A stretch of 61,664 nucleotides of DNA, filler included. It is 9 parts of 9 records of this genome, joined end to end, with 100 filler letters (N's around TTAATTAATTAA, not from the genome) between each part and the next. Parts side by side here need not be neighbours in the genome. Positions count along the whole stretch, not along the records: positions 22,286 to 28,703 come from SRR31147125_279426; 8 more parts are not named here. The stretch is one strand, 5' to 3'. Both the position numbers and the translations under genes were made by a program. Positions 7,383-56,465 of this stretch are shown piece after piece (the stretch's first letter is position 1; every line of letters begins with the position of its first letter). The notes beneath the pieces were generated by a model, which saw only the letters and a program-made list of their open reading frames with translations, ran no database searches and was not told where the DNA came from.

Positions 7383-7482
7383 NNNNNNNNNNNNNNNNNN
7401 NNNNNNNNNNNNNNNNNNNNNNNNNNTTAATTAATTAANNNNNNNNNNNNNNNNNNNNNNNNNNNNNNNNNNNNNNNNNNNN
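7383..7482. other. Artificial contig linker
   Basis: N44-TTAATTAATTAA-N44, with stop codons in all six frames. Confidence 0.99.
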
Positions 7483-13901: not shown

Positions 13902-14001
13902 NNNNNNNNNNNNNNNNNNNNNNNNNNNNNNNNNNNNNNNNNNNNTTAATTAATTAANNNNNNNNNNNNNNNNNNNNNNNNNNNNNNNNNNNNNNNNNNN
14001 N
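13902..14001. other. Artificial contig linker
   Basis: N44-TTAATTAATTAA-N44. Confidence 0.99.
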
Positions 14002-22185: not shown

Positions 22186-22285
22186 NNNNNNNNNNNNNNN
22201 NNNNNNNNNNNNNNNNNNNNNNNNNNNNNTTAATTAATTAANNNNNNNNNNNNNNNNNNNNNNNNNNNNNNNNNNNNNNNNNNNN
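22186..22285. other. Artificial contig linker
   Basis: N44-TTAATTAATTAA-N44. Confidence 0.99.
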
Positions 22286-22896
22286 GGTATGATTTAACCG
22301 GACTCACTAACCGCTTGATGACCTACCGTTGTGAGTTGCACACACTGGAGAAAAACCACCACTGTGCAGCAGCCATGCTTTCACTACTTCATAACGCCAT
22401 GCCCAAAGCCATGGGGCTCTCTCGAATGCTATCGGACTCTCTACTTAGGGAGTGTGAAAAGGTCGTGATCCATGGCGACTTTCAGTCGTCGAATGTCCTG
22501 GTGGATGAACAAGGTCAAATCAAAGCCTTTTTAGATCTGGACGATGCCCGGGAAGATCTCAGAATTTATGATATTTTCCAATTAGCACTCTACTGCGTTG
22601 AGCAAGGTTATGGTGCTGATGAGAATCAAAGTGATAGCAGAGCCCAAAGCTGGCATCAGTGCGTTCCTCTGATTATAGAAGCCTATGGCGGTGTCGAGCA
22701 GTTGAGTGAAGCGGAACTCAAAGCGTTTCCCGCTTTGGTTCAGATAAACTTCTTGCAAAAGCTGGGCGATGAACGACTCGATATTACCGATGGTCAAGCC
22801 GATGAAGCAGTAGTAAAACTCCAACGCGCCATGGCCAGCCTGGAAGAAGATACCCAAACCCTAACAGAGATCAGCGAGAAGCTGCTGGCGCAATAG
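22286..22896 (+). CDS. APH/homoserine-kinase-II family phosphotransferase (probably 5' truncated)
   Basis: Brenner motif IHGDFQSSNVL and FLDLDDA. Confidence 0.75.
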
Positions 22897-22940
22897 GGCT
22901 TCACGGCATAACAAGCTTTTGTTGCCTAACACTACTATCT

Positions 22941-23978
22941 GACCTTGTTTCCTAAACCGATTGAACTTTCAGCCCTTGCGTTGATCAGATCCTGAAACCA
23001 ACACAAAAGGAACCAGGTTCATGGCCAAGGCAAAGTACAAAGTTCATAACTGGAGTGACTACAACAAAGCACTAGTGAAACGTGGCTCAGTGACCTTCTG
23101 GCTCGACCAAGAAGCAATAGAGGCATGGCATGACTGTCAACCTAATGGTCAGCGAGGACGGGATAACAAGTTCAGCGATAAAGCGGTCACAGCAGCGCTA
23201 ATGATACAGGCTGTCTTTGGTTTAACGCTTCGTCAAACCCAAGGCTTTATCGATTCAATCTTTGAACTGATGGGCGTGGAGCTTTGCTCTCCTACTTATA
23301 GCTGCATCAGCAAACGAGCGAAAAGCGTTGAGGTTGATATTCGCCGCCCGAAAGGTGCTGTTGCTCATTTGGTCTTCGATGCCACCGGCCTAAAAGTTTA
23401 TGGCGAAGGTGAATGGAAGACGCGTAAGCACGGCAAGGAGAAACGTCGCACATGGCGGAAGCTGCACTTAGGCGTTGATGCTCAGAGCCATAGCATCATC
23501 TGTGCAGAGATGTCACTGGAGAGCGTCGGAGATAATCAGGCTTTGCCAAGTTTGCTTAGGCCCCTGCGTCGACAGATAGGAACAATTTACGCTGACGGGG
23601 CTTATGACACCAAGCAGTGCCATAAAGAGATAGCGAGAAAGAAAGCTAAGCCCTGTGTTCTCCCAGAAGTAATGCGGGTTATTGGGAAGATGGGCATCCG
23701 AGGAATGAGGCTGTCAGCGCTCTCAAAGAAGGCTCATTAGAGCAGTGGAAAGTCGAGAGTGGCTACAATTGGCGAAACAGCGATGTGGCGCTACAAGGCT
23801 CTAACGGGAGATAAGCATCGGCTTCGTAGCTACAACGCTCAGGTCGGCGAAGCGCTGGCCCGTGCGGCAGTGTTGAACAAAATGACCGCTTTAGGCATGC
23901 CAGTAAGCGAAATGGTTCGTTAATAGGAAGTTGGGTAAGGGAAACAGCGCCTTACCCAATGATTTGATCAACAAGGCC
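22941..23978 (+). mobile_element. IS5-family (IS903 group) insertion sequence, degenerate
   Basis: 1038 bp. Right end GATTTGATCAACAAGGCC resembles the IS903 IR; left end GACCTTGTTTCCTAAACC matches it at 12/18; transposase inside; no target duplication seen. Confidence 0.85.
23021..23923 (+). pseudogene. IS903-type DDE transposase, disrupted
   Basis: NWSDYNKALVKRGS, DATGLKVYGEGEW, RRTWRKLH, ADGAYD. Frameshift near 23662 and a second lesion near 23770 where the usual 'Y.RRS..ETAM' stretch is shortened; ends NKMTALGMP..*. Confidence 0.85.
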
Positions 23979-24019
23979 CTTTCGCAGCACTCGCTTTTTC
24001 ATCAAATTAGCCTGAAAGA

Positions 24020-24078
24020 AGTTTCCAACTTCAATGTCTCTAATCAACAGCTGATCAGAGACATTGAAGCAGGAAACT
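24020..24078. repeat. Long intergenic inverted repeat
   Basis: AGTTTCC-aa-CTTCAATGTCTCT ... AGAGACATTGAAG-ca-GGAAACT (7-bp and 13-bp perfect stems). Confidence 0.75.
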
Positions 24079-24445
24079 CTGGCAGCTTTCGTTAGCCTCG
24101 ATGAAGCAGTTGAAGTTGGAAACCGCCACGCAAAGAAAAAAACTCACTTTTGGACATAATTGTTTTGGCACTGTTAGCTAAGGTAACTTCTTCGGCTTTT
24201 TTCTTATCCGGACGCAATGACACATCAACCAGTTGTGAAGAAAAACTTCATTTAGTAGCAAAGAAAAGATCATAAATATCAACTAGCTTCCACACCCGAA
24301 AGACGCAGCCAGGATCATTTGCAGTACGCATCTCATCAAACAGCTTAAGCGTTTTAAAAGCTACCCCTTCTAAATCACGCAAGCGGGTATTGCTTGTTCT
24401 CGTTCGTTATTTTTCGTTAAAGAGTTCAAAAATTAAGGAACTACT

Positions 24446-27095
24446 ATGAGACTCCATGGATTAGCAATAGCCATTGCTTCATTGCTATCAACTCAGACCT
24501 ACGCCGATATTCTTATTTCAGAATATATTGAGGGTAGCTCGTACAATAAGGCCATTGAACTGGCAAACACTTCAAATACACCAGTAACGCTAACAGGTTA
24601 CACATTACAGAAATCAACTAACGGTGGTGGAAGCTGGACCCAGTCTATGTCTCTGGATGATGTCACCATTCCAGCAAATTCAGCTTTTGTTATTTCTCGT
24701 ACCGATGCCAATACAGCCATTCAAGCCGTAACCGATAAGTTTGAGACCTCCAAACAAGTCATTAACTTTAACGGTGACGATCCTGTGGGCCTCTTCTTGA
24801 ATGGTACGCTGATCGACATGGTTGGTGTAATGGGAGACATTAACTTTGGTAAAGATAAGACGCTGCTCGTCGCACTCTGGTACCAACAGCAAGCTATGAC
24901 AGCGGCCAGTGGGAAGTATTTACCAAAAACAATAGTGAAAACCTAGGATTTTTAGATGGTGCCGGTGATCAGCCTCCAGTTGAGGAGCCAGAACTCACCA
25001 AAGTAACCATTATGGAGATTCAGGGTAACTCCTGAGCTCACCTCTTATCGATTCAGGTTTTGAATCCGATGATAAGTTCCAAGTAGAAGGCATTATCACT
25101 GCCATTCAACCTAAACAACTGGGTAACGACATTAGTGTCGGCTTCTTTATTCAAGATGAAAATGGCGATAATGATCCTCTGACCTCAGATGCCCTTTTTG
25201 TCGAAGCCGATATCACAGGACTAAATACAGGTGATAAAGTCTTAGTCACTGGTAAGGTTTATGAAGATTTCGGCTGGACTTCCCTGATTCAAACACAGGT
25301 AGAAGTCTTAGGCTCTGGATTTGAGATTGCGGCTACGCCAATTCGCACTCTTGCCTCCGATGAGAGCTTCCGTGAAGCATTAGAGCGTCATGAAGGTATG
25401 CTGGTTCAGCTGGATCTGACGGCTAATCTTCGCGTAACCCGCACTTATGGCTTTGATTATGGCCCATATCGTAACAACATGGTGGTTGCACATGAGCGTG
25501 TAAACCTTCATCCGAATCAGCTGAACGCTCCCTCTTCTGACGAAGCCAAAGCACAAACATCCGAAAATAGAGATCGCCGAATCTTCGTTGAGAGCTTTGA
25601 AAAAGCTGCCAATGGAGTGGTGCCTTGGTACCCAGAGTTTGGTTTAACCGATATTGATCAAGACGGCTCCACTGAAGATTACATACGTATTGGCGATCTC
25701 GTTAATGGCTTAGAGGGCGTACTGGGTTACTCGTATTCAGAATTCCGACTTTATGTGACAAATGAAGCCGATCAAACGACTTTTGTGCGTCAGTCCAATG
25801 AGAGAACTCAAGCGCCAGAGCTTAAAGAGGGAGACCTTAAAGTCGCCACCTTTAACGTACTAAATTACTTTAACTCGCCATTTGGTGGTGCGGCTAACCC
25901 ATTGGGTCAGAATCGTGGTGCAACTAAGTTTGAAGACTTTGAGCTCCAGGCAGCCAAGATTGTCGCGGCATTAAAAGCCATGGATGCAGATATCATAGGC
26001 TTAATGGAAATTGAAAATAATGGCTTTGATAGCAACTCTGCCATTGTCGACTTAGTTACTCGCCTGAATACGGAGCTGACCGATAAGAAGCAATACAGCA
26101 TTGCTTGGGATGGTCAGATCACTCAAGTGGGCGGCGATGCCATCACCAACCAGGTCATTTACCGTCCATCAAAAGTGAGCATTGAGACCCTAAGAGTAAT
26201 TAAAATGCCAGAGCAGCATGCTCCTGCTGTGGATAGCGAAGATGGTAACAACTATCAACGCGATGCCATCACTCCGACCTTTAATATTAAGGGTACAGAT
26301 GAGCTGCTCACCATTGCGGTCAATCACTTTAAATCTAAAGGCTCTACCTGCTGGGAAGATGTTGCCTTACAAGGTGGCCAGGATCCCAACCTTCAGGGCT
26401 CTTGTGAACACTTGCGTGTCTCAGCTGCTTATCACTTAGGTGAATCCTTAGAAGCCCTGCCAGGACATAAGCTGATCATCGGCGATCTGAACGCCTACGG
26501 TAAAGAAGATGCTATTAGCGTTTTAACAAACCGCAAGCATTTGCCAGAGAGCTACGAAATTAAAGCCGCAAGAGATACCTGGGTGGGTGAGACACCACTT
26601 CACGGAGAAAATGGTGCCATTATCGAAGGCTCATATGACTACATCAATGTGGTTCAAGAGTTACATCCTGAAACCTATGGTTACTCATTTAACGATGAAG
26701 TGGGCACTCTGGATTACATCCTTGCCTCAGCTAGCTTAAGCGAACATGTTGTCGATGCCGCAGAGTGGAACATCAATGCCGTTGAGTCCAAGCTCTTTGT
26801 CTATTCACCTAAGTACACAGGTGACTTGCCGAAATATGCCGATGCATTTAGCTCCTCGGATCATGATCCAGCCCTTGTTGTGCTGAGCTTTGAAGCCGCT
26901 CAACCAGAGTTGCTCGGAGACTTAGACAGCGACCAAGACGTAGACCGTATGGACCTGAACCTTTTCTATCAGGGGATTCGTGCCCAAACCTTCACAGATA
27001 TGGCCTATGACTTTAATCAAGATGGTCAAATCAACCGATACGACCTTCGAGGCCTAATGTCACTTTGTACGCGTGCCCGTTGTGCAACCCATTAA
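24446..27095 (+). CDS. exeM: ExeM/NucH-family extracellular endonuclease (LTD + OB-fold + EEP) with a C-terminal dockerin-like domain; two apparent 1-nt deletions (near 24862 and 25034)
   Basis: Signal peptide; ISEYIEGSSYNKAIEL (lamin tail); GFFIQDENGDNDPLTSDALFV and LERHEGMLV (OB); ATFNVLNYFN, LMEIEN, NHFKSKG, GDLNAY, LDYIL, SSDHDP (EEP); then GDLDSDQDVDRMDL..DFNQDGQINRYDL. Confidence 0.9.
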
Positions 27096-27110
27096 TAAAC
27101 GGAGTTAAAC

Positions 27111-27620
27111 ATGAAATACATAATTGCACTCTTTACCCTAATGCTGACACTGCAGGCCAATGCCGCTCTAGTCAACTTAGAAGCAAGTGAGACTCACTAT
27201 AATGCGGGTGAGTTAATCTCGATTAGCCTGTTTGTCGACAATACCCAAGGTGATGTGGACAGCGTGTTTTATGACTTAAGCTTTAATGAGCTATTAGCCG
27301 ACTACCTTAGCTTTGATTTTTACCCGAACATTGATTTTGATGCCTTTGCGGTTGCAGATCTAAGTCTTGCTGCCAGCAATGTTCTTGAAGTCACAGCACT
27401 TTGGTTTGAAGACTTTGTGAACCCAGGCAGCTTCTTTACGCCCAGTGGAAAGTTTGAATTGGGTCAGGCTCATTTCCTTGCGACCTCTGATCTAACACTT
27501 GATACCAGCAAAGAAGGACTGTTCTCTTCAGCTGCAGATATCCCAGAGCCAGCTAGTCTGCTGATCATGCTTGCAGGCATAGCTCTTCTAGCACAACGCA
27601 GAATGAAAAAGAGCTTTTAA
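27111..27620 (+). CDS. PEP-CTERM protein with a putative cohesin-like beta domain
   Basis: Signal peptide ending ANA; C-terminal IPEPASLLIMLAGIALLAQRRMKK; central G..ISISLFV..FYDLSFN..L..ELGQAHF pattern. Confidence 0.8.
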   Translation: MKYIIALFTLMLTLQANAALVNLEASETHYNAGELISISLFVDNTQGDVDSVFYDLSFNELLADYLSFDFYPNIDFDAFAVADLSLAASNVLEVTALWFEDFVNPGSFFTPSGKFELGQAHFLATSDLTLDTSKEGLFSSAADIPEPASLLIMLAGIALLAQRRMKKSF

Positions 27621-27763
27621 GACCAATCAGTATCGATTCATGAGCTGTTGCTGGGGGGAAATTTTTCCCCCACTCCCAACAGGAGAGGCCGAATGAACTC
27701 ACCCCTACAACTCACTTGATACGAGGTTCGCTATAAGGCCGAAGTTTGATAAGAACTTTAATT

Positions 27764-27800
27764 AACCCCGCCACTGAAAAGTGGCGGGGTTTCTTTTTCT
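27764..27800 (+). terminator. Rho-independent terminator
   Basis: AACCCCGCCACT-GAAA-AGTGGCGGGGTT followed by TCTTTTTCT. Confidence 0.9.
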
Positions 27801-27983
27801 TGATTACTGATGAAGCTCTGTCATACCTTCCGTTGCCGGTCTCGCTCATCCGTACAACTCGATGTTCTTGCTGTTTCTGATATTGTTCACATCTCTGTCA
27901 CGCAATTGCCATTGAACTGTCTTGAATTTCCCTTGATATAGACCGCAGGTATTTCACCCTACAATCTTAATCAAGGAATTGAC

Positions 27984-28703
27984 ATGAAGGGCTTTAAGCA
28001 ACTGGCAATCGCTGGTTTGGTAACCGCAGCATTGGCAGGCTGTAACGACAGCGACGACAAGGCAATTAACGTCACCTTGTTGCATATGAACGACCATCAT
28101 TCTCACATCGCAGCTGATGATTTTGATTACGATGTTTCTGCTCTGAACCTCTCGGCAACTAATGAAGCAGGTCAAGCAATCGAAGAAGTTGAAGTCACAT
28201 ACGGTGGCTTTGCGATTATGAAAACCCTGTTCGATGAGATGACCGCATCGAGTGTTAACCCAATCAAAATTCACGCCGGTGATGCCATTACGGGCACGCT
28301 TTATTACAGCTTGTTTGAAGGCGAAGCAGATGCCGCCGTAATGAACGACATCTGTTTCGATGTGTTCGCTTTGGGTAATCACGAGTTCGATGATGGTGAC
28401 GTAGGCCTTGCCAAGTTCCTTGATTTTCTCAGTAGCGATAGTTGCGATACGCCAGTTCTGGCGGCCAATGTGGTACCGTCCTCTTCTTCCGCAATTGCCG
28501 AAGGGTACATTCAGCCTTACACCGTGATGCGCTTTCAAGGCGAAAAAGTTGGTCTGATCGGTATTGATATTGCCGACAAAACTAAGAATTCATCACAACC
28601 AGATGAAGGCACTGAATTCCTCAATGAAATGGCTACGGCGCAGCAATACATTGATGAATTGCGTGACGAAGGCGTTGCGCATTACCACGATGCAGATCAG
28701 TCA
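27984..28703 (+). CDS. 5'-nucleotidase / NAD nucleotidase (UshA/NadN-like) lipoprotein, 3' truncated
   Basis: Lipobox LAGC; LHMNDHHSH, HAGDAITGT, LGNHEFD, VLAANV. Confidence 0.9.
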
Positions 28704-28803
28704 NNNNNNNNNNNNNNNNNNNNNNNNNNNNNNNNNNNNNNNNNNNNTTAATTAATTAANNNNNNNNNNNNNNNNNNNNNNNNNNNNNNNNNNNNNNNNN
28801 NNN
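28704..28803. other. Artificial contig linker
   Basis: N44-TTAATTAATTAA-N44. Confidence 0.99.
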
Positions 28804-36815: not shown

Positions 36816-36915
36816 NNNNNNNNNNNNNNNNNNNNNNNNNNNNNNNNNNNNNNNNNNNNTTAATTAATTAANNNNNNNNNNNNNNNNNNNNNNNNNNNNN
36901 NNNNNNNNNNNNNNN
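36816..36915. other. Artificial contig linker
   Basis: N44-TTAATTAATTAA-N44. Confidence 0.99.
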
Positions 36916-41981: not shown

Positions 41982-42081
41982 NNNNNNNNNNNNNNNNNNN
42001 NNNNNNNNNNNNNNNNNNNNNNNNNTTAATTAATTAANNNNNNNNNNNNNNNNNNNNNNNNNNNNNNNNNNNNNNNNNNNN
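41982..42081. other. Artificial contig linker
   Basis: N44-TTAATTAATTAA-N44. Confidence 0.99.
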
Positions 42082-49564: not shown

Positions 49565-49664
49565 NNNNNNNNNNNNNNNNNNNNNNNNNNNNNNNNNNNN
49601 NNNNNNNNTTAATTAATTAANNNNNNNNNNNNNNNNNNNNNNNNNNNNNNNNNNNNNNNNNNNN
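49565..49664. other. Artificial contig linker
   Basis: N44-TTAATTAATTAA-N44. Confidence 0.99.
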
Positions 49665-56365: not shown

Positions 56366-56465
56366 NNNNNNNNNNNNNNNNNNNNNNNNNNNNNNNNNNN
56401 NNNNNNNNNTTAATTAATTAANNNNNNNNNNNNNNNNNNNNNNNNNNNNNNNNNNNNNNNNNNNN
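56366..56465. other. Artificial contig linker
   Basis: N44-TTAATTAATTAA-N44. Confidence 0.99.

Follow-up and report, generated by a model that had tools for sequence, protein, structure and literature searches.

How could an extracellular DNase that ends in neither a membrane anchor nor a covalent sorting tag be kept near the cell that secretes it? This question is raised by two adjacent genes in a stretch of DNA of 61,664 bases (hereafter the window), in which nine short contigs have been joined through paired 44-N blocks. The two-gene locus lies on a 6.4-kb piece (22286-28703) with a G+C content of about 45%, and consists of a gene for an ExeM/NucH-family nuclease with a C-terminal dockerin, followed by a gene for a small protein with a candidate cohesin domain and a PEP-CTERM sorting signal. 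We propose, with a probability of about 0.68, that this operon encodes a non-covalent tether by which the nuclease is held outside the cell. The features on which the argument turns are as follows.

24446..27095, + strand: ExeM/NucH-family extracellular nuclease gene (NF033681), broken in the record near 24865 and 25033
24446..24505, + strand: signal peptide of the nuclease, 20 residues, TYA before DIL (from the translation, with a putative cleavage site)
24491..24829, + strand: Lamin Tail Domain (Pfam LTD, 61.6 bits, residues 16-128)
25845..26756, + strand: EEP catalytic domain, with SDHDP just after it (Pfam Exo_endo_phos, 34.5 bits, residues 273-576 of the frame that starts at 25029)
26913..27050, + strand: two-loop Ca-binding dockerin, with a helix after each loop (Pfam Dockerin_1)
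27066..27083, + strand: C-terminal CxxxxC motif (CTRARC) directly after the dockerin
27096..27110, + strand: intergenic spacer of 15 nt, with GGAG at 27101-27104 (read from the sequence)
27111..27620, + strand: gene for a protein of 169 residues with a signal peptide, a single cohesin and a PEP-CTERM signal (Pfam, family profile and fold)
27165..27536, + strand: diverged cohesin domain, residues ~19-142 (family profile and fold)
27537..27602, + strand: PEP-CTERM sorting signal composed of IPEP, a hydrophobic helix and RRMKK (Pfam PF07589)
27764..27791 (to 27801 with the T tail), + strand: terminator-like hairpin with a 12-bp stem and 8 GC pairs, 3' of both genes

The nuclease matches the NCBIfam model ExeM_NucH_DNase (NF033681) with 562.1 bits, against a cut-off of 300, over positions 1-545 of the 546 in the model. 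Its match to NF033680, the model for ExeM with GlyGly-CTERM, reaches 556 bits, below the cut-off of 1300, and stops at model position 852 of 884. Inspection of the C-terminus after the SDHDP motif revealed no hydrophobic membrane tail and no GlyGly tail. In dockerins, Ca loops carry acidic or amide residues at positions 1, 3, 5, 9 and 12 and are then followed by a helix. The final 71 residues of the nuclease contain two such loops, with D14, D16, D18, D22 and D25 in the first and D44, N46, D48, N52 and D55 in the second (G13 is encoded at 26916), and eight Ca-loop positions are invariant among 19 aligned dockerin tails (alignment A2). The match of this tail to Dockerin_1 (PF00404) exceeds the cut-off of 22.9 bits both when the tail is taken alone (29.7 bits) and in the context of the protein (23.6 bits), whereas the dockerin helices are seen in the structural model only, in which the predicted local confidence (pLDDT) of the partners is at least 86. 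The Pfam match ends at residue 57 of the tail, and therefore does not include the CxxxxC motif, of which both cysteines (C63 and C68) are invariant; all 19 paired dockerins carry this motif at the extreme C-terminus, usually as CTRxRCA.

The nuclease gene starts with the ATG at 24446 and stops at 27093-27095, and the second gene begins with the ATG at 27111. A terminator scan of the locus found no strong terminator-like site between the two genes, the sole strong one being the hairpin at 27764-27791. A palindrome of the form G6-A3/T5-C5 is found at 27643-27670, between the stop of the cohesin gene and this hairpin. The layout is as had been read in an earlier note on this DNA, which described an ExeM-type nuclease without a transmembrane tail after SDHDP, a tail consisting of two dockerin Ca loops, a gap of 15 nt to the next gene, a terminator shared by both genes, and a second product with a signal peptide, a beta-rich domain and an IPEP-transmembrane-RRMKK end; for the tail and for the PEP-CTERM end this is now backed by Pfam matches over their cut-offs.

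As recorded, the nuclease occupies three reading frames (24443-24868, 24865-25032 and 25038-27092). A Logan contig of a sequencing run (X1) that is a possible source of this DNA contains 98% of the sampled words, and differs from the record by a G inserted behind 24864, a C>T change at 24866 and a G inserted behind 25033. With these three differences a single nuclease frame of 883 residues runs from 24446 to the unchanged C-terminus. The correction is based on one Logan contig with a depth of 8.8, and is made at the level of contigs and not of raw reads. Because this contig restores the frame, the two breaks are most likely errors of the record. It seems extremely improbable that the locus has truly decayed, with a nuclease pseudogene next to an insertion sequence and no functional product. 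Such decay would fit with the two breaks in the record and with the presence of an IS5-type DDE transposase gene (open reading frame of 239 residues, 23021-23740) some 700 bp upstream of the nuclease, but it is at odds with the single 883-residue frame in the independent contig, with the intact catalytic and Ca-loop motifs, and with the 70% identity over the whole length to the closest nuclease found, the intact orthologue of 884 residues in Agarivorans sp. QJM3NY_25 (locus L001).

The identity of the second gene product was the least certain element at the outset. The protein of 169 residues has a signal peptide ending in ANA, followed by a beta-rich domain and the IPEP-helix-RRMKK end, which scores 22.7 bits with PF07589 (cut-off 20.7) and 15.8 bits with TIGR02595, marginally below the cut-off of 16. 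No match to Pfam Cohesin (PF00963, cut-off 24.1 bits) was found at E <= 1. A word-index search for relatives gave none at E <= 0.001, and a peptide scan of the genome contigs likewise yielded no confirmed relative. A full HMMER search with the protein did identify 22 representatives at E <= 0.001, with lengths of about 154-209 residues, except for one protein of 2036 residues (P0018) that matches the PEP-CTERM end only. Alignment A1, with 23 rows, was made from 21 of the HMMER representatives, the Agarivorans homologue and the window protein; 18 of its 23 members have a PEP-CTERM match, and eight match Pfam Cohesin at E <= 1, one of which (P0005, 25.2 bits) exceeds the cut-off.

When the A1 profile was compared with the PDB, the top match was a cohesin dyad (3l8q, E 2.4e-4), and cohesin chains made up 22 of the 27 sequences listed at E <= 10. 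An AlphaFold2 model of the protein, built on A1, has a pLDDT of 80. All matches listed by Foldseek in the PDB are cohesins, with E-values from 2.3e-4 and 19 of them at E <= 0.001. In a VIA-align comparison with 48,161 chains the best 15 are likewise all cohesins (Z 9.3-11.4, root-mean-square deviation 2.4-4.3 over 102-127 residues), followed by a group of adhesin and pilin Ig-like domains with Z <= 8.4. Since family profile and fold agree, despite the failure of the Pfam model, the protein is classed here as a diverged cohesin. The call that had originally been made by eye, and had been rated by its own author as the weakest link, is thus now supported by the family profile and by the structural matches.

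If the two proteins form a pair, their genes should be found together elsewhere. In a sample of 401 genomes from one gammaproteobacterial order, the A1 profile has matches at E <= 1e-6 in 20 genomes. Six loci that match with the PEP-CTERM end only and have other domains (L105, L107, L108, L109, L115 and L116) were left out before counting, as was a partial match without a locus (G115:C1), leaving 24 family cohesins, i.e. 23 full-length ones and L103. A dockerin is encoded in an adjacent gene on the same strand for 21 of these 24, in 15 genomes, so that the adjacency on which the earlier note had staked its proposal is conserved in this sample. Among the 21 upstream tails scanned, 18 have a Dockerin_1 match at E <= 0.01, 16 of them with the cut-off score or more and two with 22.1-22.2 bits; in the tail of L104 the dockerin motif is visible, yet it scores only as an EF-hand. 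Two loci have a variant layout: in L117 (G210:C91) the protein encoded upstream of the cohesin gene has its dockerin at an internal position, with a PPC domain after it, and in L118/L119 (G115:C21) the cohesin gene comes first, 528 nt before the gene of a dockerin protein of 996 residues on the same strand. The converse search, for all dockerins in six genomes, gave 11 matches that exceed the cut-off and a weaker one of 21.8 bits, each of which adjoins a family cohesin, and one partial match of 19.3 bits without a neighbouring family cohesin. In the genomes so searched, each cohesin protein has a single cohesin, and each cohesin a single dockerin.

The proteins that carry the dockerins are diverse. 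A Pfam scan of the last 495 residues or fewer of each upstream protein identified an EEP nuclease at ten loci (with Agarivorans as an additional one), a collagenase M9 at two loci, and a glucuronyl-esterase-like domain, Ig-like repeats and DUF4785 at one locus each. No Pfam match was obtained for L110 and L097, the latter of which bears the SDHDP motif. As the cargo varies, the cohesin is not a nuclease-specific factor. The second gene was also considered as a nuclease-specific inhibitor or immunity protein, and this was ruled out, as the same gene follows those of collagenases, esterase-like and GH43-like proteins.

A direct interaction of the pair is predicted by a complex model of cohesin residues 19-142 with the 71-residue tail and two Ca ions. 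The model has an ipSAE of 0.88, compared with 0.04 for the best of three controls; 51 of 78 solved complexes attain that mark, as against two of 108 mismatched pairs. The runs show 100% contact agreement. In the model both dockerin helices and the CxxxxC segment contact the cohesin at residues 50-53, 76-86, 93-103 and 109. The modelling of the pair that had been suggested earlier is hence consistent with docking, which would be Ca-dependent, although the score may reflect the many solved complexes of this type.

Several observations weigh against a tether. Cohesin-dockerin complexes have been solved many times, so that the complex score may show likeness or recall instead of binding, and the two Ca ions lie outside the calibration set of the tool. 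The modelled interface is not more conserved than the rest of the cohesin domain (mean column entropy 2.30 versus 2.22, one-sided p 0.59). Distances between dockerins and between cohesins are correlated (Mantel r 0.56, with none of 2000 shuffles as high), but this was set aside because linkage alone predicts it. Cohesins diverge much faster than dockerins: the window and Agarivorans proteins are 33-34% identical in the cohesin, 68% in the dockerin and 70% in the nuclease, the window cohesin having been compared with L001 and L085/L086. To these are added the failure of the window protein to match Pfam Cohesin, the frame breaks in the record itself, and three of the 24 family cohesins (L111, L113 and L106) that have no dockerin neighbour. 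The sole exosortase-family match in Agarivorans is encoded on the minus strand in two overlapping frames (L083, 877-1878 and 1811-2326) in an exopolysaccharide (EPS) locus, which is either a frameshift or a sequencing error. Finally, the literature examined does not establish the final destination of exosortase substrates.

Some of these points would be expected if there were no cognate binding at all, and the dockerin-like tail were a Ca-dependent stabilising or matrix-binding module, with the cohesin-fold PEP-CTERM protein acting on its own at the surface or in the matrix and sharing no more than its expression with the nuclease. An unconserved interface, the Pfam result and the cohesins without a dockerin neighbour are all in line with this, and one paper states, with reference to Peer et al. 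2009, that cohesins and dockerins outside cellulosomes have no known function (PMC5244752). We nevertheless consider it very unlikely, in view of the 21 of 24 cohesins that adjoin a dockerin across varied cargo, the twelve dockerins of the six-genome search beside family cohesins (11 over the cut-off and the 21.8-bit match), the complex model that passes its controls, and the structure of a duplication in Agarivorans.

This duplication joins the dockerin and the cohesin gene in one stretch. The Agarivorans nuclease has a matching dockerin tail, and its gene is followed by a homologous cohesin/PEP-CTERM gene. The genome has two Dockerin_1 matches and two full-length family cohesins, with a cohesin gene directly after each dockerin gene; the second dockerin cargo is a protein of 920 residues with LamG, aBig_2 and GH43-like domains. 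A stretch of 774 bp is present twice in L001 (2611-3384 and 7883-8656) with 97.8% identity, about 5 kb apart and behind these two unrelated enzymes, and extends from the first dockerin residues through the cohesin/PEP-CTERM gene. Because the duplicated stretch spans exactly both elements, the dockerin plus the cohesin gene behaves as one unit.

The position of this unit can be compared with the tails of related nucleases. Among the closest 80 ExeM loci, 73 have a GlyGly-CTERM-like tail, one (Agarivorans) has a dockerin with CxxxxC, five have another tail, and one has no open reading frame with the motif, in agreement with the contrast to characterised relatives that had been drawn beforehand. 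Trees built on the catalytic region place 11 dockerin nucleases in a clade of their own, and the window and Agarivorans nucleases inside an otherwise GlyGly-tailed set (support 98 with FastTree and 95 with quick IQ-TREE, L097 having been left out of the latter tree). This placement suggests that a GlyGly-CTERM tail may have been swapped for a dockerin tail. Since a single clade of all dockerin nucleases was not rejected in an approximately unbiased (AU) test (p 0.066), which thereby allows a single origin, we do not claim an independent swap as shown. It is conceivable, at slightly less than even odds in our estimate, that the dockerin plus cohesin/PEP-CTERM unit of about 0.8 kb is a portable in-trans sorting tag, which can be placed behind any secreted enzyme and replaces a covalent C-terminal anchor, such as GlyGly-CTERM, by a private, Ca-dependent and reversible link to the exosortase pathway.

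The same properties allow for a role of the cohesin as an escort instead of an anchor. The pair would then bind in the periplasm, the PEP-CTERM cohesin would act as a detachable in-trans tag that carries the enzyme through exosortase-linked export, and the complex may subsequently be released. The pairing is strictly one-to-one and operonic, unlike that in many-to-one scaffolds, dockerin and cohesin move as a single 774-bp unit, the dockerin always bears the extra invariant CxxxxC, and the pair takes the place of the covalent sorting tag of the relatives, all of which would suit an escort. On the other hand, no outer-membrane route is known for exosortase substrates, and the relatives ExeM and Xds are described as substrates of type II secretion and GlyGly-CTERM processing, which need no escort (PMC6219818). 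Nothing that was computed separates escort from static anchoring; we regard the escort as unlikely.

A link of the pair with exosortase is indicated by co-occurrence. Exosortase_EpsH (PF09721) is present in all 15 pair-holding genomes, compared with 95 of the 401 genomes overall, a contrast that is inflated by the kinship of the genomes. The survey of exosortase presence that had been called for therefore turned out as expected among relatives.

In the tether that we propose, the first gene would provide a Sec-exported ExeM/NucH-type nuclease with a C-terminal two-loop Ca-binding dockerin and a CxxxxC motif, and the second a Sec-exported single cohesin, of which the PEP-CTERM tail would direct entry into the exosortase pathway. 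The dockerin would dock in its private cohesin in seawater, which is rich in Ca. After exosortase processing the cohesin would be located either at the cell surface or in the exopolysaccharide matrix, and the nuclease would be retained wherever exosortase substrates end up. There it would degrade extracellular DNA near the cell, without diffusing away.

The gene downstream of the shared terminator would fit with such a function:

27984..28703, + strand: metallophosphatase of lipoprotein type (LAGC lipobox), cut by the contig end (Pfam Metallophos, 24.7 bits)

Its product is probably a surface-located 5'-nucleotidase, judging from the domain match and the lipobox. Its location 3' of the terminator is in keeping with DNA scavenging, and together with the nuclease it would make a DNA-to-nucleoside pair. 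Upstream, a fragment of an APH-family phosphotransferase is found at 22315-22896, with a match confined to the C-terminal part of the model. A search of a plasmid collection with the piece 22286-28703 gave no match. Elsewhere in the window, the contig at 28804-36815 has a largest open reading frame of no more than 235 residues across 8 kb, and is unlike bacterial coding DNA. The G+C content of the nine contigs ranges from 44% to 60%, so that the pieces may derive from more than one organism. They are separated by the following N blocks.

7383-7482: N block
13902-14001: N block
22186-22285: N block
28704-28803: N block
36816-36915: N block
41982-42081: N block
49565-49664: N block
56366-56465: N block

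To our knowledge, work on cohesin-dockerin docking has dealt almost exclusively with the cellulosomes of Gram-positive bacteria, and what becomes of PEP-CTERM proteins once exosortase has acted is not settled. With a pair that is conserved, one-to-one and operonic, and is present in marine gammaproteobacteria that can be cultured, Agarivorans among them, both docking and PEP-CTERM fate become testable by simple genetics combined with a DNase assay, as the pair would link a nuclease that is easy to assay to an exosortase substrate, at the position where close relatives have a rhombosortase tag. It also bears on the way in which marine bacteria stop extracellular enzymes that degrade DNA or other polymers from diffusing away, and supplies small and probably orthogonal cohesin-dockerin pairs for use in diderm hosts. 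Should the unit indeed be a portable tag, Gram-negative bacteria would have in it a general means of retaining public-good enzymes, and it would offer a way to trace the destination of PEP-CTERM proteins.

Public records label the relatives of the cohesin either 'hypothetical protein' or 'PEP-CTERM sorting domain-containing protein'; one UniRef entry bears the name 'Cohesin domain-containing', and precomputed matches to both PF00963 and PF07589 exist for a few of the relatives. The cohesin/PEP-CTERM architecture is thus already in databases, and no discussion of it was found in the literature searched. In the open-access literature searched, no paper was found that combines PEP-CTERM with cohesin, or with cohesin and dockerin together, although the survey of Peer et al. 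2009 may already list such proteobacterial proteins. The single paper found with both dockerin and exosortase treats each separately, for ANME archaea.

Among known systems, the cellulosome is the obvious one for comparison. It is defined by a scaffoldin with several cohesins, which gathers many dockerin-bearing carbohydrate-active enzymes. The earlier note had spoken of a cellulosome-like plug and socket; the plug and the socket are supported, but 'cellulosome-like' is an overstatement, as there is one plug and one socket, and no scaffold. A closer likeness is with OlpA and OlpC of C. thermocellum (PDB 3ul4 and 4dh2) and ScaE of R. flavefaciens (2zf9), in which a single cohesin with an envelope anchor also captures a secreted enzyme that ends in a dockerin. 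The window protein aligns with these with VIA-align Z scores of 9.8, 9.7 and 7.4, respectively, at 7-12% sequence identity. OlpA, OlpC and ScaE are anchored to a Gram-positive wall by SLH repeats or by a sortase LPXTG signal, whereas the anchor here is a PEP-CTERM/exosortase signal in a diderm. Moreover, each dockerin here has its own adjacent cohesin gene, and the cargo consists mostly of nucleases and proteases, whereas theirs is mainly plant-cell-wall enzymes. Docking outside cellulose degradation is also found in the NagJ and GH33 cohesins of Clostridium perfringens (2ozn, 2jh2, 2w1n and 2vo8), which are among the best sequence and fold matches of the window protein. The C. perfringens modules link secreted enzymes to each other in a Gram-positive organism, and have neither a sorting-signal anchor nor an operonic one-to-one pairing.

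The nearest ideas for diderms are the 'planctosome' hypothesis for freshwater Planctomycetes (PMC6461901) and remarks on cohesin-like and dockerin-like open reading frames of Saccharophagus (PMC2386152). The planctosome is likewise a non-cellulosomal cohesin-dockerin display of hydrolases on a diderm, and likewise purely in silico. It differs by its large multi-domain anchoring and adaptor proteins, an LTD tether and peptidase cargo, and has no PEP-CTERM cohesin and no private two-gene cassette. With the PEP-CTERM/exosortase system (Haft et al. 2006, PMC1569441) the second gene product shares the class of its C-terminal signal. The known PEP-CTERM proteins, however, are themselves the cargo, and the one described here seems to serve another protein as its adaptor. 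The nuclease itself shares its family (562 bits) and its LTD plus EEP architecture with ExeM of Shewanella oneidensis and Xds of Vibrio cholerae, which PMC6085458 and PMC6219818 describe as extracellular DNases with GlyGly-CTERM that are partly associated with the cell envelope. ExeM and Xds end in a GlyGly-CTERM handled by rhombosortase, whereas the window nuclease ends in a dockerin with CxxxxC and would rely on the second gene. According to these papers VesB is retained through GlyGly-CTERM and rhombosortase, and a similar retention is inferred for Xds and ExeM (PMC6219818, PMC6085458); on the most likely reading the tether proposed here would parallel this retention of Xds and ExeM, by analogy, with a docked partner in place of the covalent tag.

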